A stretch of 20,322 bases of DNA, taken from contig NJBG01000001.1 of NCBI GenBank assembly GCA_005222965.1, forward strand, positions 62,001 through 82,322, in the 5' to 3' direction. Shown here piece by piece: positions 3,017 through 20,142 of this stretch (the stretch's first letter is position 1; each line of letters opens with the position of its first letter). The notes below the pieces were generated by a model, which did no database searches, was not told where the DNA came from, and worked only from the letters and a program-made list of their open reading frames with translations. This DNA is from Candidatus Woesearchaeota archaeon B3_Woes (GTDB lineage Archaea; Nanobdellota; Nanobdellia; Woesearchaeales; B3-WOES). A program made the translations under genes and the position numbers.

Positions 3017-3025
3017 TTGTTTCTT

Positions 3026-4225
3026 ATGACAAAAATAAAGTTTAAAGACCTAAGTTTTGAAGAAATGGATAATAAGATTAGAGTTTTCTTTCTAGATAAT
3101 TATTATTTTGACATTGAAAAAGAAGATTTATCAAATATTGGTAAATTTAAAGTTAATAAAAACTCTATTGAGTTTTATGTTAATGATAATAAAGCAAGAA
3201 AAAGGTTCGATTTTCTTATAAATAAAGGTTTTGAAAATCTGAAAAACAAATTAACCCATAAAAAAGCAGTATATTTACATCAAAATATGGATATTCCCCT
3301 TATTGGTCTTAATTATTTTGGGATTATTGACAGAAATACTTCATTAATCGAAGTAAAGCCATTAACATCATGTAATTTTAACTGTATCTATTGCTCAATT
3401 GATGAAGGAATAAGCTCAAAAAAACAGACAGATTTTATAATAGAAAAAGACTTTTTAATTCAAGAGCTTAAAAAACTAATTAAAACAAAAAACTGTAATC
3501 ACATTGAAACCTACATTAATCCTCATGGAGAACCTTTATTATACAAACCACTTGTAGATTTAATCAAAGATATATCAAAAATTAAACAAGTTAAAACAAT
3601 TTCAATAAGCAGCAATTCTCTTTTATTAGATAAACCAAAAGTTGATGCACTTATTAAAGCAGGTTTAAATAAATTTAATCTTTCTATTAATTCTATAGAT
3701 GAGAAAATAGCCAAAAAAATGGCAGGAACAAATTATGAACCAAAAAGAATTCTGGAAATCTGTAAATATATTTCTTCAAAAAAAGCAAAACTCTTTATTG
3801 CACCAGTGTTGTTGCCTAATTTTAATGATGATGAAATGCCAAAAATAATTGAATTTGCAAAGAAAATTAATGCTAAAGTATGTATACAAAACTTTCTAAA
3901 TTATAGATTTGGTAGAAATCCTTGTAAATCCTTGCCTTTTGAGAAATTCTTTGAGAATATGAAAAACCTTGAAAAAAAGCACGAGGTTAAACTAATAGTT
4001 GATTCTACTGATTTTAATGTGATAGAAACAAATAAATTAGAAAAACCCTTTAAAAAGAATGATACTATTAAAGCAGAAATATTATTTGATGGAAGATTAA
4101 AAGGTGAAAAAATAGCTATGGCAAAAAACAGACTTATTTCTATCCCTAATTGCCATAAAACAGGGAAAGTTAAACTAAAGATTGTTAGATCCAAACACAA
4201 CATATTTGTAGGTATTCTAATTTAG
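3026..4225 (+). CDS. Radical SAM protein with C-terminal TRAM-like domain (archaeal COG2100-like); ATG at 3026 preferred over TTG at 3017
   Basis: CxxxCxxC motif CNFNCIYC preceded by FGIIDRNTSLIEVKP and followed by SIDEG; HGEP motif; C-terminal beta-rich PFKKNDTIKAEI...KLKIVRSKHNIFVG. Confidence 0.85.
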   Translation: MTKIKFKDLSFEEMDNKIRVFFLDNYYFDIEKEDLSNIGKFKVNKNSIEFYVNDNKARKRFDFLINKGFENLKNKLTHKKAVYLHQNMDIPLIGLNYFGIIDRNTSLIEVKPLTSCNFNCIYCSIDEGISSKKQTDFIIEKDFLIQELKKLIKTKNCNHIETYINPHGEPLLYKPLVDLIKDISKIKQVKTISISSNSLLLDKPKVDALIKAGLNKFNLSINSIDEKIAKKMAGTNYEPKRILEICKYISSKKAKLFIAPVLLPNFNDDEMPKIIEFAKKINAKVCIQNFLNYRFGRNPCKSLPFEKFFENMKNLEKKHEVKLIVDSTDFNVIETNKLEKPFKKNDTIKAEILFDGRLKGEKIAMAKNRLISIPNCHKTGKVKLKIVRSKHNIFVGILI

Positions 4226-4359: not shown

Positions 4360-5337
4360 ATGAAAAAAGCATTATTATTACCATTTATGATTCTAATTTT
4401 ATTAGTTAGCACTGTATATGCTTTAGAAGATGGTCTTAGAATAAGTGATCTTACAATATATCAGGATTCAGACCTACAAAGAAGCATTGGAGACGGATCT
4501 GTTTATAATGAGTTTATCGTACCAGGAGGAGATATAAAATTTGAAATAGAATTAGAAAATACATTTATAGATAAAATAGATATTGAAGATATAGAAATAA
4601 GCATCACTCTTTATAATATAACAGAAAATGAAGATATATTTGAAGATGTTTCATCTTTTGATTTAAACTATGATAAAACTAAAACTAAAAGTATTAGATT
4701 AAATATCCCTGATGATGCTGAAGAAGTTCAAAAAACAGTTGAAATAAATATCCAAGGAATAGATGAAAATGATACAATTCATAAGATTGATTGGTTTGTT
4801 TATCTTAATATAGAAGATGAAGGTCATGATGTAAGAATTTACAATACACAATTAAATCAAACAATAGTAAATTGTGGAGAAACAGTAAAACTTATTGTAT
4901 GGATTGTTAATGATGGGAAACATGATGAAGAAGAAGTTGTCTTAGAAATAGAAAACAAAGAACTTGGACTACATAATGTTTATGACAATATCGAAATTGA
5001 TGAAGATGAAAAATATGCTAAAAGAATTCTTTTAAATTTTGATAATGTAAATAAATCAGGCAAATTTCCTCTTCAAATAAAAACATATTATAAAGATGAT
5101 CATTTAGATGATTTAACTACAATAGATTTATGGGTCAATCAATGTAAAAATGTTTTAGTTATTGATGATGAAGATATATCAGAAGAAGAAAGTGATACTC
5201 AAACAACAGCACCTCAAACTAATATAGATGAAAGCGATACAAAAAAACAGAATATACCAGTTATGTTATTGGCTTTTTTTATAGTTATTTTAGTAATACT
5301 TATTATAATAGTTGTTGTTTGGTTAATAAAAGAATAG
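4360..5337 (+). CDS. Membrane-anchored cell-surface protein with two Ig/CARDB-like beta domains (S-layer-associated candidate)
   Basis: Signal peptide MKK+hydrophobic+VYA; two acidic beta-rich repeats (PGGDIKFEIELEN, CGETVKLIVWIVNDG); Thr/acidic linker; C-terminal TM helix ending in KE; four N-x-S/T sequons. Confidence 0.7.
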   Translation: MKKALLLPFMILILLVSTVYALEDGLRISDLTIYQDSDLQRSIGDGSVYNEFIVPGGDIKFEIELENTFIDKIDIEDIEISITLYNITENEDIFEDVSSFDLNYDKTKTKSIRLNIPDDAEEVQKTVEINIQGIDENDTIHKIDWFVYLNIEDEGHDVRIYNTQLNQTIVNCGETVKLIVWIVNDGKHDEEEVVLEIENKELGLHNVYDNIEIDEDEKYAKRILLNFDNVNKSGKFPLQIKTYYKDDHLDDLTTIDLWVNQCKNVLVIDDEDISEEESDTQTTAPQTNIDESDTKKQNIPVMLLAFFIVILVILIIIVVVWLIKE

Positions 5338-9295: not shown

Positions 9296-9838
9296 TTAAG
9301 ATTTAACACAATCTGAACAAACAAGAACATTATCTTTTTCAATAACCTTTTCAGAATAATTTCCACAAAGATTACAAACTCCTTCTTTTTCTTTAACACT
9401 ATGAATTGGTTTTCTTTCTTCTTCTTTTAACTCAAACTTTTCTACTAATAAATCAAATAATTGTGGTTCTATTTTAAGGACATCTTTTAATGTCAATAAT
9501 CCAACCATCTTTCCACTATCTATTACAGGTAAATGTCTTATATTATGATCTTTCATTATAACCAAAGCCTCAAATATATCCTGTTGAAGCTCTGCTGTGT
9601 GTTTTATCTTCATCATAACTTCTGATACAATCTCTTTTTCAGGATCAAGACCAAGAGAAACGCCCTTTCTTACAATATCTTGTTCTGTCACAATGTAAAG
9701 AACTTCATTATCATTTATTATCAAAGCACCAACATGGTTGTCTTTCATAACATTTGCACATTTCATTAAAGAATCATCTTTACCAACCATTACTGGATTT
9801 TTCGTCATTGCATCACACACTTTGTATCCTATCTTCAT
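9296..9838 (-). CDS. Tandem CBS (Bateman) domain protein with C-terminal Zn ribbon
   Basis: VCDAMTKNP...HVGALII...IVTEQDI and VSEVM...NIRHLPVID.GKMVGLLTLKDV; C-terminal CNLC-x17-CSDC. Confidence 0.9.
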   Translation of the reverse strand: MKIGYKVCDAMTKNPVMVGKDDSLMKCANVMKDNHVGALIINDNEVLYIVTEQDIVRKGVSLGLDPEKEIVSEVMMKIKHTAELQQDIFEALVIMKDHNIRHLPVIDSGKMVGLLTLKDVLKIEPQLFDLLVEKFELKEEERKPIHSVKEKEGVCNLCGNYSEKVIEKDNVLVCSDCVKS

Positions 9839-9926
9839 CTCAAAAAGAATATGAAAAATTAGTATTTAAATATTTAGGTCATTAAAAACATACTAAGAAA
9901 AAGATAGGATTTACCGTGTATAAAAT

Positions 9927-11768
9927 TTAAGAATTTACTAAAATTTCTACATCTTTGCCAAAGATCTTTTTTAGATTTTCAAAGACTGGTTTTTTGATAA
10001 ATGCTTTAGGTATTTGTTCAATCTCAGATAATGTTTTATCTAGTTCATCAAAAGAACTTTTCTTTAATGTGCCAAAACTTCCATCTGGGTTTAATTTTAC
10101 CTGACTAATTTTCTTAGCTTCTTCACTAACATCATGTATTACAAAAGCAACAGCTCCAAGCAAAACAACTTCTCCGTATTTCTTGCCATATTTTACCTTG
10201 ATTTTTGATCTTTCTAATTCTCCAACTCTTTTTCTCTGGATATATTCCACCATAAATTTGATTAGTTCCCTTGTATCTTTTTTGACTTTCTCAACTTCTG
10301 TTTTTGTTAACTTCTTTTCATCATAATCTTTTTTAGCTTTAAATGTCTCATTAAGTATTCTTAAAAATTTAGCAGGTATTTTTCCTTTTGACGTCATTTC
10401 ACTCTCAAACACTTTAACAATCTCTTTATCAGGAATTTTTTCAATACCTTCATTCTTTAGTATATCTCTTATGATTGTAATAACAGATTCATATATACTC
10501 ACAACATCTTGTTCTGATTTTATAACACTTATCTGCTCAAATAATCTTTTTATTCTTTTGAGATATTTTTTAGCATGAGATAATAGATCATCTACTTCTT
10601 TCCCGGTTATTTCTTTTTTTGTACCATGTTCAATTTCTTTTCTTAAAGTGATTATTTTCTCGAGGATACTAATATAATTAGCTTCTAAAAGTTTCTCTTT
10701 TTGCACAAAGATTTGCTTCATAAGCTCTGGTGTTTCTCTCGGTGTAGGTGGAGGAATACCCAACATCATTAATGCTGCCTGAGAAGGCGTCAAGAGAGCA
10801 TAATATATATCCTCTATACATATATCTTTAAGCTTGAAAGTAACTCTTTGGAGCATCTGTTCTCCAGACGACATAAACATATCAATAGCTTCTGCACTTG
10901 GTTTAATCTTACCCATTCTAAGCAATAATTTCCAAGGCATAAATACTCCTCTGTCATAAAAAGGAACTCCATCTCTCAATAAAGTAAAGATTATTGGGTT
11001 TGCTTCCTTTAGGCTGTCCCAGAAATCAGTCAAAATATAAATTTGAATATTTAATTTGTTTTTAATACCAGTCATCTCTCCAGCTTCAATACCCATACCA
11101 ATAATTATAGCCCTTAACTTATCCCTTAACTCCACTCTTGTCATCTTTTTAACATCTGTATCGTCGATAACTATCCAGACATCAATATCAGATGTTTTTG
11201 TAGATTTACCTTGTGTTAAAGAACCTGCTAAAACATAGCTAACTATATACTTTTCAAATTTCTTTAGAACCATTGATTTATGTATTTCAGCTATTTTTAT
11301 TGCAGCCAACATTCCATTATCATACACAGGAGCAGACATAGAAACCATCTGTAATAATTCATATTTTCCATCATAACAATTTTGCCATAACTCGCTTAAC
11401 AAAATTATTTCAGGAAATATTTTTTTATCTGTTTTCTGTGCCATCTCGATTATTATAGTGGATAGTTTTTGATGTAATTCCATCTTAGACATTGTTTTAC
11501 TATCCATGTCATCAATTAAAACCAAGACGCTTATCTTATCTTTATCCTCTTCCTTCATCTTTTGCATCTGTTCAGGTTTAGGGGGAGGTAATAAAGAAAC
11601 AGCCACAATATACTTATCAAATTTTTTAGTTATCTCTTTTTGGAATTTAGTTAATTTTGATTTGATTGTTTTTAATTTCTTCTCTAACTCTGGAGGCAAA
11701 GGTGGTTGTTTAGAATTAACATTATTTGGTTTTACAACATCTTTATTTTTATCATCTTTGTTTGTCAT
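9927..11768 (-). CDS. Multidomain protein: degenerate nucleotidyltransferase + Pol-beta-type (MNT) nucleotidyltransferase + HEPN + degenerate HEPN-like + C-terminal domain
   Basis: GSLTQGKSTKTSDID (aa 182-196); internal repeat aa ~30-153 vs ~155-275; YYA..SQAAL..G and RKEIEH (aa 376-381, Rx4H). Confidence 0.8.
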   Translation of the reverse strand: MTNKDDKNKDVVKPNNVNSKQPPLPPELEKKLKTIKSKLTKFQKEITKKFDKYIVAVSLLPPPKPEQMQKMKEEDKDKISVLVLIDDMDSKTMSKMELHQKLSTIIIEMAQKTDKKIFPEIILLSELWQNCYDGKYELLQMVSMSAPVYDNGMLAAIKIAEIHKSMVLKKFEKYIVSYVLAGSLTQGKSTKTSDIDVWIVIDDTDVKKMTRVELRDKLRAIIIGMGIEAGEMTGIKNKLNIQIYILTDFWDSLKEANPIIFTLLRDGVPFYDRGVFMPWKLLLRMGKIKPSAEAIDMFMSSGEQMLQRVTFKLKDICIEDIYYALLTPSQAALMMLGIPPPTPRETPELMKQIFVQKEKLLEANYISILEKIITLRKEIEHGTKKEITGKEVDDLLSHAKKYLKRIKRLFEQISVIKSEQDVVSIYESVITIIRDILKNEGIEKIPDKEIVKVFESEMTSKGKIPAKFLRILNETFKAKKDYDEKKLTKTEVEKVKKDTRELIKFMVEYIQRKRVGELERSKIKVKYGKKYGEVVLLGAVAFVIHDVSEEAKKISQVKLNPDGSFGTLKKSSFDELDKTLSEIEQIPKAFIKKPVFENLKKIFGKDVEILVNS

Positions 11769-11842
11769 TGTTGCATCCTATTCAAGTAACAACTTATGAA
11801 ATTAATTGTGAGTATTTAAAGGTTTTGTTTAGATATTTTTAT

Positions 11843-15718: not shown

Positions 15719-16096
15719 ATGTCATCAGAAGGAACAAGTAAATACCTAATAGAAGTTAGATTACTTCCGGCTATAGCTAAATATAGGCAACCAGATGGAA
15801 CAATTGATTTTAGTAAAATTCCTCTTGAAGAAGTAGTATACCTACAAATTGATAGGGTGCGCAGACTTGATCAAACAATACAAATACAAGAGTATCCTTC
15901 TGGTATAAAAAGTTTATATCATCATCCTATGATAAGAGATTTTAGAGATGCTGTTCATTGGCATAAAAGATTTCCAACAGATCATAGTAGAAATGAAATA
16001 AGACGTTATAAAAAAGAAGAAGCAATTAAATCAATAAAACAAACTCAAGGATTACTAAACTATCTTCTAACACCACAAGGTATACCAAGAATATAA
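15719..16096 (+). CDS. Hypothetical protein, possibly HEPN-like
   Basis: 125-aa ORF with its own TATA (TTTATAAT 15689-15696) and a downstream T-run; IRDFRDAVHWH motif followed by an amphipathic terminal helix. Confidence 0.6.
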   Translation: MSSEGTSKYLIEVRLLPAIAKYRQPDGTIDFSKIPLEEVVYLQIDRVRRLDQTIQIQEYPSGIKSLYHHPMIRDFRDAVHWHKRFPTDHSRNEIRRYKKEEAIKSIKQTQGLLNYLLTPQGIPRI

Positions 16097-16173: not shown

Positions 16174-18384
16174 TTGAAATCAAAAAATCAATCATATGTT
16201 GCTTACTTAAGCAGTTACCCTCCAAGAGAATGTGGCATTGCTACATTTACAAAAGATTTAACAAATTCTATGAATAAGAGATTTAATCCTCAGCTAAAAT
16301 CAAAAATAATTGCCATAAATGATAATTCTACTAATATATATAATTACAATAAGAAAAAAGTAATCATGCAGATTAATGAAGATGATATTGAAAAATACAT
16401 TAATATGGCCAAAGAGATTAATCAATCAAAAAAAATTAAGATTGTTAATATCCAGCATGAGTTTGGTTTGTTTGGTGGTGATGATGGAAATTATTTAATC
16501 CCTTTTTTAGAAACTTTAGAAAAACCAGTTGTAATAACATTTCATTCTGTAGTTCCTGATCCAGATGAGTCAAGAAAAAAACTTATACAATTTATTGTGT
16601 CTCATTGTTCTGCAGTCATTGTAATGGCCAATAAAGCAATAGAAATATTAAGAGAGGATTATGAAGTTGATACAGACCATATACATGTAGTTCCTCATGG
16701 AATTCCAGAAGTCCCATTTCAATCAACTAAATCTGCTAAAAACAAATTAGGATTACAAGATAAAAAAGTTTTATCTACTTTTGGTTTAATAAATAAAGGT
16801 AAAGGAATAGAATATGTAATTGAATCTTTACCTCCTTTAGTAAAAAAATTTCCTAATCTTTTATTTTTGATAATAGGCGAAACACATCCTGTTGTGAGGA
16901 AAAATGAAGGTGAAACCTATCGGAATAGCTTAATAAAAAAAATAAAAGACCTTGGTCTTGAAAAAAATGTCAAATTCTATAATAAATATCTTGATCTTCA
17001 GGAAATCATAGATTATTTGTTAGCAACAGATATCTATATGTCTTCAGCATTAGATCAAAATCAAATAGTAAGTGGAACTCTTTCATATGCATTGGGTTGT
17101 GGTAAAGCAATTATCTCAACACCCTATCTTTATGCTAGTGAGGTTCTATCTGATAATAAAGGCATATTAGTTAAGTTTGCAGATTCAGAATCAATAACCA
17201 AGGCTATAGACAAAATATTATCAAATAAAAATTTTAAAAAAGAGTTAGAAAAGAACGCATATGATTACAGTAGACGTATGACTTGGTCTAATGTGTCTAC
17301 ACAATGCTTAAAAATTTTTAATCAGATTGAGAGATTAAGAGAAGGAGTAACAAAAAAATATCCTGCTATTAAATTAACTCATCTTATGACGATGACAGAT
17401 GATTTTGGAATTATCCAGTTTGCTAATCATTCTAACCCTGATAAAAACTCTGGTTACACTGTAGATGATAATGCAAGAGCACTAATCGCCACAATTAAGC
17501 ATCATAGTTTATCTAAGTCAAAATCCTCTCTAAAACTAATAAATACTTACCTCAATTTTTTAGAACATTCACAAAATAAAGATGGTGATTTTCATAATTT
17601 TATTGGTTATGACAGAAAACCATTGTTGAATAAAGGATATACAGCAGACGCTCTTGGAAGAAGCATCTGGGCTTGCGGTTATACTATTTTTAAAAACAAT
17701 AAAGATGATATAAAATATAAAGCAAAAAAAATACTCACAAAAACTCTGCCTTTAATTCCCAAACTAGAGTCTCCAAGAGCAAAAGCATTTACAATACTTG
17801 GCCTTTACTATTATAATGAAGTCTACAAAGATAAAAAAATTGTTTCTCAAATAACAAAATTAGCTGATTCTTTAGTAGAAGGCTATAAAGAAGAATCATC
17901 TGATGATTGGAAATGGTTTGAAAAAATACTTACATACTCTAATGGAAAATTGCCAATGTCTCTATTTGCAGCTTATCAGGCAACAAACAAAAAAGAGTAT
18001 TTAAAAATTGCTGAAGAGAGTTTGGATTTCTTATCAAATCTAACATTCCTTGATAAAAAGTTTGTTCCAATAGGACATAAAGGGTGGTACAAGAGGGATG
18101 GTAAAAGAGCCTTCTTTGATCAACAGCCAGTTGATACATCTGTAATGGTTCAGACTTATTTATTTGCATACAAAACCACAAAAAACCCAGAGTATTATGA
18201 TAAAGCTATTCTTGCTTTCAACTGGTTTTTAGGTAGAAACTCTATAAATCAGATGATGTATAATGAATCAACAGGAGGGTGCTTTGATGGATTATCTCCA
18301 ACTTCTGTTAATCTAAATCAAGGAGCAGAATCAACAATAGCTTATCTATTAGCAAGATTAGATCTAGAGGAAATAAAGAAATAA
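16174..18384 (+). CDS. GT4 glycosyltransferase fused to a C-terminal six-hairpin (alpha/alpha)6 glycosidase-like domain
   Basis: YPPRECGIATF, IQHEFGLFGG, TFGLI..KGIE, GETHP, SGTLSYA.G.GKAIISTPY; C-domain GYTVDDNARAL, WFE..LTYSN, FDQQP, GGCFDGL, NQGAEST; TTG start with GAGGTG SD at 16163-16168. Confidence 0.88.
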   Translation: MKSKNQSYVAYLSSYPPRECGIATFTKDLTNSMNKRFNPQLKSKIIAINDNSTNIYNYNKKKVIMQINEDDIEKYINMAKEINQSKKIKIVNIQHEFGLFGGDDGNYLIPFLETLEKPVVITFHSVVPDPDESRKKLIQFIVSHCSAVIVMANKAIEILREDYEVDTDHIHVVPHGIPEVPFQSTKSAKNKLGLQDKKVLSTFGLINKGKGIEYVIESLPPLVKKFPNLLFLIIGETHPVVRKNEGETYRNSLIKKIKDLGLEKNVKFYNKYLDLQEIIDYLLATDIYMSSALDQNQIVSGTLSYALGCGKAIISTPYLYASEVLSDNKGILVKFADSESITKAIDKILSNKNFKKELEKNAYDYSRRMTWSNVSTQCLKIFNQIERLREGVTKKYPAIKLTHLMTMTDDFGIIQFANHSNPDKNSGYTVDDNARALIATIKHHSLSKSKSSLKLINTYLNFLEHSQNKDGDFHNFIGYDRKPLLNKGYTADALGRSIWACGYTIFKNNKDDIKYKAKKILTKTLPLIPKLESPRAKAFTILGLYYYNEVYKDKKIVSQITKLADSLVEGYKEESSDDWKWFEKILTYSNGKLPMSLFAAYQATNKKEYLKIAEESLDFLSNLTFLDKKFVPIGHKGWYKRDGKRAFFDQQPVDTSVMVQTYLFAYKTTKNPEYYDKAILAFNWFLGRNSINQMMYNESTGGCFDGLSPTSVNLNQGAESTIAYLLARLDLEEIKK

Positions 18385-19563: not shown

Positions 19564-20142
19564 TTATTTATTAGGATTAAATAATTTTGTTAAATCAGTC
19601 ATATCTTTTTCTTCTTTAGTTAGGATTGGTCTGTCTTCATCAGGTTCTTCTTCAGGCTCTTCCTGTTCTTCAGTTGTCTCTTCTTTATTTTCCTCTTCCT
19701 GATCTATTTCATCATTTGTTTTCACAATATCCTCATCTGTTTCAGAGCTCTCTTCTGTTTCTGTCACATCTTCTATTTGTTGAGCTTCTTCCTCTTGTTG
19801 TAATATTTCTTGGTCATTTGTCATAACTTCGTCCTTAACCAAATCACCAACTTTCATGTTAGAATCAGCGACATTAAAATCAGCATCGTCAAATTGTGAA
19901 AGTTTTTTTTCTACTGGTTTTTCAGATTCTTTTTTTGTTTCAATCTCTTTATCAACTTCATTTATTATACTATCAACTTTTTCTTTTTTTTCAACAGAAG
20001 GCTCTTCAACTCTTATCTTAACGCCTTTATTAGAATATCCTAGAATTTCTTTTGCTTTGTCTTTAGCATCAGTTATACTTGCAGCTAATCCAGATTGATG
20101 TAATGATTCTGCTAATTTATCTATCTCTTCTTGCTCTCCCAT
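19564..20142 (-). CDS. Acidic, largely disordered hypothetical protein
   Basis: 192-aa Glu/Asp-rich ORF with a TATA box about 24 nt upstream; helical N-terminal motif IDKLAESLHQSGLAAS..DAK.KAKEILG. Confidence 0.7.
   Translation of the reverse strand: MGEQEEIDKLAESLHQSGLAASITDAKDKAKEILGYSNKGVKIRVEEPSVEKKEKVDSIINEVDKEIETKKESEKPVEKKLSQFDDADFNVADSNMKVGDLVKDEVMTNDQEILQQEEEAQQIEDVTETEESSETDEDIVKTNDEIDQEEENKEETTEEQEEPEEEPDEDRPILTKEEKDMTDLTKLFNPNK

Follow-up and report, generated by a model that had tools for sequence, protein, structure and literature searches.

Why should an archaeon keep, among its housekeeping genes, one long protein assembled from the two kinds of domain that make up HEPN-MNT toxin-antitoxin pairs? 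The question is raised by a gene for a protein of 613 amino acids (aa) in a stretch of 20,322 nucleotides (nt) from Candidatus Woesearchaeota archaeon B3_Woes (contig NJBG01000001.1, positions 62,001 to 82,322), called the window below. An earlier reading of the letters alone (the sequence-only reading) took the product for a chain of two nucleotidyltransferase (NTase) and two HEPN domains, one copy of each having decayed, and suggested that it might be a self-contained nucleotidylation and RNase machine. The answer favoured here, with a probability of about one half, is that it is a domesticated housekeeping nucleotidyltransferase, a single chain with one active site, derived from an MNT-HEPN module of the kind seen in kanamycin nucleotidyltransferase (KNTase). 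Three kinds of evidence carry this answer: the anatomy of the chain, the residues on which selection has acted, and the distribution of the family.

Duplicated domains and the constrained core

The internal NTase duplication lies far beyond chance, and that of the HEPN domain is clear at profile level. Every motif to which the sequence-only reading had pointed is in place: KFDKYIVAV (aa 49-57) with KFEKYIVSY (170-178); LPPPKP (60-65); the stretches beginning VLIDDMDSK (83-102) and IVIDDTDVK (199-218); APVYDNGM (146-153) with VPFYDRGV (268-275); LNIQIY (239-244); the residues G182, S183, D194 and D196; and RKEIEH (376-381) with KKDYDE (479-484). For the nucleotidyltransferase pair, BLASTP aligns aa 21-155 with aa 156-290 over 115 columns (E 2e-14, 29% identity). 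Two family alignments serve for the rest. The larger, A3, has 109 rows, among them relatives as distant as 22% identity and some shorter members of the family, and counts from it refer to covered rows; the smaller, A2, has 33 rows and is the source of the per-domain counts of positions conserved at 90% or more. Sub-alignments of NTase-1 and NTase-2 taken from A3 are related with 99.5% probability in hhalign (E 9.2e-23, 111 columns), and the order of helices and strands is identical in the two copies in an AlphaFold2 model on the 109-row alignment (mean predicted local distance difference test score, pLDDT, 94.1; predicted template modelling score 0.72). The HEPN duplication, which BLASTP missed (E 0.035, 18 residues), emerges from hhalign at 98.0% (E 1.5e-13, 90 columns), with KKDYDE lying opposite RKEIEH; four cross-domain controls gave at most 1.0% probability.

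The fold of HEPN-1 is established by profile and structure together: a profile search of PDB sequences finds the UPF0332 protein AF0298 (2hsb) at E 1.8e-6, and aa 309-412 superpose on 2hsb_A with a VIA Z of 11.5 (root-mean-square deviation (rmsd) 2.6, 101 aligned, 24% identity). HEPN-2 (aa ~414-518) resembles HEPN-type bundles in the same comparison (2jpu, Z 9.0; 1wwp_B, 8.6; the sacsin HEPN domain 3o10, 8.4; 8xdj, 7.3); Z values of 7.3-9.0 fall short of what confidence in a helical bundle requires, and since these direct fold scores are indecisive the assignment rests mainly on the hhalign relation to HEPN-1. BLASTP, hhalign and fold matches thus uphold the order dead NTase, NTase, HEPN, degenerate HEPN. 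To this must be added a fifth domain, at aa ~522-613, which had been overlooked.

The residues of a nucleotidyl-transfer site are confined to the second NTase copy, as had been claimed. NTase-1 has LPPPKP in the place of the GS loop and K78 and S80 at the DxD positions, and the equivalent columns of A3 are variable (most often Lys, Ser and Glu, in 34, 7 and 6 of 85 rows, at the first; Asn, His and Ser, in 28, 15 and 10 of 86, at the second); lacking the metal-binding pair and varying this widely across the family, it should be unable to bind metal in the usual way. NTase-2 carries both the hG[GS] loop and the D-x-D pair that define the Pol-beta-type superfamily (G182-S183 and D194-I-D196), and the family keeps them: G182 in 101/101, S183 in 94/101, D194 in 98/102 and D196 in 97/101 rows of A3. 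By fold, aa 148-274 match the MNT antitoxin 8xeh_E (VIA Z 10.2, rmsd 3.0, 104 aligned). Taken with HEPN-1, as aa 152-418, the domain finds ANT(4')/KNTase (6nlt_A, VIA Z 11.6, 206 aligned); further VIA matches of this pair of domains are 3c18, AAD(9) and LinB, with 6sxj_A at Z 9.9 and 3jyy_A at Z 8.4, and the top Foldseek matches are KNTase (1kny_A, E 6.4e-4), AAD(9), DrrA and GlnE.

Selection has not fallen evenly on the five domains. Positions conserved at 90% or more number 31 of 125 in NTase-2, 7 of 14 in the short linker that follows it and 9 of 121 in HEPN-1, as against 2 of 127 in NTase-1, 0 of 109 in HEPN-2 and 0 of 92 in the C-terminal domain; these counts mark NTase-2, linker and HEPN-1 as the constrained core. 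Within the linker W279, L283 and G286 are each present in 33/33 rows of A2.

Some smaller motifs, peculiar to the family, accompany the two NTase copies. Directly after the DxD strand stands DDTDV (aa 202-206; window 11151-11165, minus strand), in which D202, D205 and V206 are kept in 33/33 rows of A2; the dead copy echoes it as DDxD (aa 86-89; window 11502-11513, minus strand), with D87 in 29/33. A YDxG motif closes each copy, D150 and D272 being found in 33/33 rows of A2 and D272 in 107/107 of A3.

The C-terminal domain is predicted to consist of five strands and two helices. No convincing PDB fold match was found for it (VIA best Z 4.1 among 48161 chains; Foldseek best E 0.14), which does not prove a new fold, and hhalign finds no similarity between it and the other domains of the protein.

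Distribution, relatives and genomic setting

The family is both large and widespread. Of 8000 scored candidates, more than 4476 are homologues at E ≤ 1e-3; among the matches listed, 119 other proteins are 67-86% identical over ~600 aa, and those that are named bear the generic annotation foreseen by the sequence-only reading, as 'nucleotidyltransferase domain-containing' or 'UPF0332' proteins of Woesearchaeota or Nanoarchaeota. A match at E ≤ 1e-5 turned up in every one of the 201 genomes taken from the phylum, and in 193 it reached E ≤ 1e-90. Loci from species-representative genomes, 80 in number, bear archaeal titles in 79 cases (Woesearchaeota, Nanoarchaeota or Nanoarchaeia, a generic 'archaeon', and many 'uncultured Methanosarcinales archaeon'); one is labelled a bacterial bin. 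DPANN archaea have very small genomes, and a 613-aa protein that nearly every sampled genome of the phylum holds at 50-86% identity therefore probably has a central role, one that is probably absent from current pathway maps. Once its substrate is found, thousands of proteins at present labelled only 'nucleotidyltransferase domain-containing' would gain a functional assignment.

The constrained core recurs by itself in a shorter paralogue. This 271-aa protein, with one NTase and one HEPN domain, is encoded in the same genome but outside the window (G000:C1:950481-951233; L022:1447-2262, plus strand). It matches aa 155-412, the core, at 29% identity (E 8e-35), keeps the linker motif in part, and reads SKMITH at the motif position, with the His and without the Arg; a search of PDB sequences with it returned nothing meaningful. 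Most sampled phylum genomes list a second match, and this was of the paralogue type in all five genomes where it was seen. The paralogue gene sits directly behind a gene for a DOT1-like/class I methyltransferase and lies ~880 kilobases (kb) from the long form. In two other genomes of the same class the long (or 379-aa) form and the short paralogue stand close together, at G089:C3:47673-50736 (~1.5 kb) and at G031:C4:38691-44367 (~3.4 kb).

Distant relatives enlarge the module. Proteins of 1083-1340 aa carry an N-terminal extension of ~700 aa, containing TPR repeats, before the same NTase/HEPN module (identifiers in the table); P0237 (1221 aa) has a long N-terminus with no TPR match. The TPR-fused form was not found in the 201 phylum genomes, where the listed matches cover only ~690-1340 of P0192 and the frames measure 411-719 aa; the TPR part of P0192, used as a homology query, recovered P0192 alone.

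The sequence-only reading held that the gene sits among housekeeping genes, with a promoter of its own, and suggested that it may be no mobile module. The surroundings bear this out. Besides the matches in all sampled genomes, the neighbours in the window identified by Pfam include ribosomal protein S6e, aIF2-gamma, an S-layer protein, a thymidine/AMP-phosphorylase-type gene, transporters and a CBS protein, and there is no defence island: defence models matched none of the neighbours save one radical-SAM gene. That gene (402 aa, 3017-4225, plus strand, right after aIF2-gamma) matches PADLOC pVip, a viperin-like model, at E 1.9e-11, which may reflect generic radical-SAM similarity only. Open reading frames (ORFs) at 4360-5337 (plus), 15719-16096 (plus) and 19564-20142 (minus), encoding 325, 125 and 192 aa, have no Pfam match at E ≤ 0.001, and neither a tRNA scan nor an Rfam scan of the window gave a match.

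A single identified neighbour recurs. Of the 80 related loci, 26 have, downstream and in the same orientation, an orthologue of the gene for a CBS pair with a zinc ribbon; in 70 of the 80 the sequence extends 700 nt or more on that side. Context beyond it is not conserved: the upstream phosphorylase gene reappears at one of the 80 loci and the HD-domain gene at none, and among the other recurrent clusters of neighbours, each seen at 15 loci or fewer, Pfam recognises only an FmrO-type methyltransferase, at 5 loci. The predicted complex between the protein and its CBS/zinc-ribbon neighbour (score 0.00, mark 0.32, run without controls) carries no weight either way.

The claim of a separate promoter is likewise supported, by a consensus match only: a TATA-like TTTAAATACT stands upstream of the ATG, and an identical 10-mer ahead of the CBS gene makes it probable that each gene has its own promoter. 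The window contains 3 occurrences of this 10-mer, with 0.32 expected. A sigma-70 promoter and terminator scan of the window, by a model not relevant to archaea, gave nothing above shuffled expectation.

Table. Features of the 613-aa protein gene and its surroundings (positions in the window; aa numbers in the protein)
Feature	Position	Strand	Basis or remark
Whole gene, 613 aa and stop	9927..11768	-	ORF list, translation
Lys-rich N-terminal tail, aa 1-25	11694..11768	-	pLDDT ~48 (first 20 residues); mean major-residue frequency 0.26
NTase-1, dead copy, aa 26-152	11313..11693	-	BLASTP, hhalign against NTase-2
NTase-2, Pol-beta-type nucleotidyltransferase domain, predicted catalytic, aa 153-277	10938..11312	-	Pfam PF01909, fold matches
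G182-S183...D194-x-D196 active-site motif, aa 182-196	11181..11225	-	conservation in A3
Linker PWKxLLxMGKIKPS, aa 278-291	10896..10937	-	most conserved stretch of the whole protein
HEPN-1, UPF0332 type, aa 292-412	10533..10895	-	AF0298 (2hsb) profile and fold match
RKEIEH (R-x4-H position), aa 376-381	10626..10643	-	translation, A3 counts
HEPN-2, degenerate duplicate of HEPN-1, KKDYDE at motif position, aa 413-521	10206..10532	-	hhalign
C-terminal alpha/beta domain, aa 522-613	9930..10205	-	folded alone, mean pLDDT 83.9
Gene for CBS pair with C-terminal four-Cys zinc ribbon (DUF7573)	9296..9838	-	Pfam CBS, E 3e-23
TATA-box-like TTTAAATACT	11811..11820	-	43-52 nt upstream of ATG, in 74-nt gap after upstream gene
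TTTAAATACT before CBS gene	9861-9870	-	same 10-mer at TATA-box distance
Third TTTAAATACT copy	17996-18005	-	inside 16174-18384 ORF, opposite strand
TPR-fused relatives P0178, P0184, P0186, P0192, P0200, P0212, P0221, P0236, P0244, P0268			outside the window

What the protein may do, and the rival accounts

The reading favoured here would put the conserved core to work as follows. The protein would be a cytosolic, vertically inherited enzyme of Woesearchaeota and Nanoarchaeota, in which duplication has put the equivalents of two NTase and two HEPN domains into one chain. NTase-2 alone would bind a magnesium-nucleoside triphosphate, through G182-S183 and D194/D196, and would pass a single nucleotidyl group (AMP being the likeliest) to a hydroxyl on some substrate in the cell. 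The linker and HEPN-1 would provide the half of the site that binds substrate and nucleotide, as the helical domain does in KNTase; in HEPN-1 the selected residues would be K377 and E380 rather than the Arg/His pair of an RNase, a role proposed because the family has retained K377 (96/104 rows of A3) and E380 (94/104) more faithfully than R376 (72/105, with Tyr in 17) and H381 (81/104). NTase-1 and HEPN-2, themselves non-catalytic, would occupy, in a pseudo-dimeric packing, the position that a second protomer has in dimers of the KNTase type, leaving one asymmetric active site; the C-terminal domain would supply specificity for a partner or a substrate.

As to the substrate, a protein would be the foremost candidate, though still a doubtful one; the 3' end of an RNA seems distinctly less probable, and a small molecule the least probable of the three. 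The TPR fusions of the distant relatives hint at a protein partner, and together with the CBS neighbour they incline the argument slightly in that direction.

A more far-reaching version may be offered tentatively: that an MNT-HEPN module, once a toxin-antitoxin pair, duplicated each of its domains so as to mimic an MNT2:HEPN2 hetero-tetramer with one live site, and then became an indispensable regulator that defines the Woesearchaeota/Nanoarchaeota lineage and whose target is selected by a C-terminal domain of unseen fold. Such a regulator, if it exists, might for example AMPylate one of the core proteins of the cell or modify RNA 3' ends.

Several observations weigh against a single-chain, KNTase-like housekeeping enzyme. 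Eight of the 201 genomes have weaker matches only (E 1e-48 to 1e-29), and four of these were inspected: one, of 0.5 megabases and the same class, encodes a 540-aa orthologue, two (G018 and G089) carry open frames of 363 and 379 aa, corresponding to ~aa 155-454 and without NTase-1, and in the fourth the sole match is paralogue-like and contains an in-frame TAA. The Pfam identification of NTase-2 is marginal, PF01909 on aa 169-217 scoring 21.5 bits and barely clearing its cut-off of 21.0; 29 of 33 family members match that model at E ≤ 0.01, the best at 1.1e-7. The match to 6nlt_A has an rmsd of 19.1 Å over both domains, which implies that NTase-2 and HEPN-1 are oriented differently from the domains of the KNTase monomer. 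R376 and H381 are invariant in 21/21 close Woesearchaeales relatives, which leaves room for an RNase role in that clade. Finally, the strand after the DxD (aa 239-245) reads LNIQIY, with Q242 in 98/106 rows of A3 and an acidic residue at D248 in 94/107. This strand would be the usual place of the third carboxylate in Pol-beta-type enzymes; with Gln there, catalysis may be impaired or unusual.

The last point keeps alive the rival that survives best, although it too is unlikely: that the protein is a pseudo-enzyme, a nucleotide-binding sensor or scaffold that carries out no transfer and informs a partner (the CBS neighbour, for example) of ATP or nucleotide status. CBS pairs bind adenosyl ligands, and the CBS-pair gene lies just downstream in about a third of the loci; two of the four core domains have already degenerated, the distant relatives are fused to TPR repeats, and the family holds Q242 where a third carboxylate is expected. 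Against this, the Gly, the Ser and both Asp are kept in 94-101 of ~101 relatives, more than binding alone usually demands, and ANT-type and MNT-type transferases manage with two carboxylates, the base coming from elsewhere.

Less likely again is the machine first proposed, in which HEPN-1 would be an active RNA-processing endonuclease switched by NTase-2, for example through self-AMPylation. HEPN-1 is a true UPF0332-type HEPN domain, it has R376-x4-H381, without exception in the close clade, and MntA-type enzymes are the nearest sequence relatives of the NTase in the PDB (5yep_A, E 0.0048, by family profile). Conservation tells the other way. The sequence-only reading had named the DxD and the Arg/His pair together as residues whose conservation should be surveyed; the DxD is kept, as shown above, in more than 93% of relatives, whereas R376 and H381 are both intact in only 58/104 diverse relatives of A3 and are poorly kept beyond the close Woesearchaeales clade. 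HEPN RNases assemble their site from two motif-bearing domains, and neither A2 nor hhalign shows an R-x4-H in HEPN-2, so that the lone motif of each chain would need homodimerisation to make a site. The HepT motif, RX4HXY, carries its acceptor tyrosine two residues past the motif His; here H381 is followed by G382-T383, and column 383 of A2 holds Glu in 8 sequences, Lys in 8, Thr in 7, Val in 2, Phe in 2 and Leu in 1, with no Tyr in the 33. HEPN domains fused to MNT are also described as typically without the RNase residues and usually inactive (Anantharaman et al. 2013, PMC3710099), from which a non-nucleolytic HEPN-1 is to be expected. The poor conservation of the pair outside the close clade and the want of a second motif-bearing HEPN weaken the RNase half of the original proposal, and a conserved RNase role is not supported by the residues that the family has kept.

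That the gene serves, in fused MNT-HEPN form, as a toxin-antitoxin system or in defence against viruses, after the PDC-M05 or type VII kind, is very improbable: it has the right kinds of domain and weak PADLOC matches (PDC-S09, E 1.6e-4; PDC-M05A, E 2.5e-4), but its universal vertical inheritance in the sampled phylum at high identity across the order, its housekeeping neighbourhood, its unconserved RNase pair and a score of 19.6 bits against the 60 of the MntA equivalog NF047752 all speak against such a role. The part of PMC12988326 that bears on the subject deals with defence systems such as PDC-M05 and not with the present protein.

Comparison with known systems

One familiar archaeal nucleotidyltransferase can be set aside. 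The CCA-adding enzyme is recognised by PF09249 (tRNA_NucTransf2), which is not among the Pfam matches of the protein at E ≤ 10; the genome's only match to it lies at G000:C1:176375-176737 (E 6.7e-40), so that the canonical enzyme is encoded elsewhere and the present protein is not that enzyme.

The family has probably been flagged in print already, as an uncharacterised DPANN-specific cluster. Cluster cls.004259, represented by NEQ050 and found in 36 of 67 DPANN genomes (Makarova, Wolf and Koonin 2019, PMC6393860), is described as an MNT-HEPN fusion, typically in house-keeping context and unusually conserved; judged by that description, with which alone the protein was compared, the cluster is probably the present family. 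The account given there of the cluster makes no mention of internal duplications, dead copies or a C-terminal domain (PMC6393860). The earlier remark that no characterisation was known agrees with our search of the literature for NTase/HEPN fusions in DPANN or Woesearchaeota, which gave no characterising paper.

GlnE and DrrA/SidM, protein AMPylators that combine NTase and helical domains, are weaker parallels (Foldseek 1v4a, E 2.3e-3, and 6yx5_B, E 1.7e-3; for DrrA also a weak family-profile match, E 0.0043). GlnE has two NTase modules in each chain, in the order NTase-helical-NTase-helical, and both halves are active; here, by contrast, the order is NTase-NTase-helical-helical and one site is dead.

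Judged by its domain families, the protein stands nearest to the MntA/HepT type VII toxin-antitoxin systems and to the UPF0332 HEPN proteins. With MntA/HepT it shares both families: NTase-2 matches 8xeh_E (Z 10.2) and 5yep_A (Z 9.1), and HEPN-1 has the R-x4-H. MntA and HepT, however, are two small separate genes, patchy in distribution and mobile, whereas the present protein is a fused and duplicated chain, vertically inherited and universal; its NTase falls far short of the MntA equivalog, the acceptor tyrosine of HepT has no equivalent in it, and the Arg/His pair is often lost. The UPF0332 protein AF0298, the best match of HEPN-1, is a free-standing protein of 126 residues; HEPN-1 has an NTase on one side of it in the chain and a second, degenerate HEPN on the other. 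The family offers a clean example of domestication, in which domains of the toxin-antitoxin type doubled, half of the copies were inactivated and the resulting gene became fixed in a housekeeping role; domesticated MNT-HEPN modules have been proposed as the origin of GlnE and of KNTase (PMC3710099).

By architecture, the closest enzymes are KNTase/ANT(4'), ANT(9)/AadA and LinB, which likewise place an NTase and a C-terminal helical domain in one chain and whose GS...DxD motif is kept here. The resemblance does not extend to membership or to role: identity to the ANT enzymes in the fold alignments is ~13%, the NCBIfam model ANT_9 scores 15.9 bits against a cut-off of 340, and the present gene, which occurs throughout one archaeal phylum, is no resistance determinant. 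Enzymes of the KNTase type are homodimers; the Woesearchaeal protein adds, within one chain, a dead NTase, a degenerate HEPN and a fifth domain to the shared pair. Its layout provides a naturally asymmetric counterpart of such a dimer, and should be useful for understanding how subunits share a site in KNTase and in MNT-HEPN systems.

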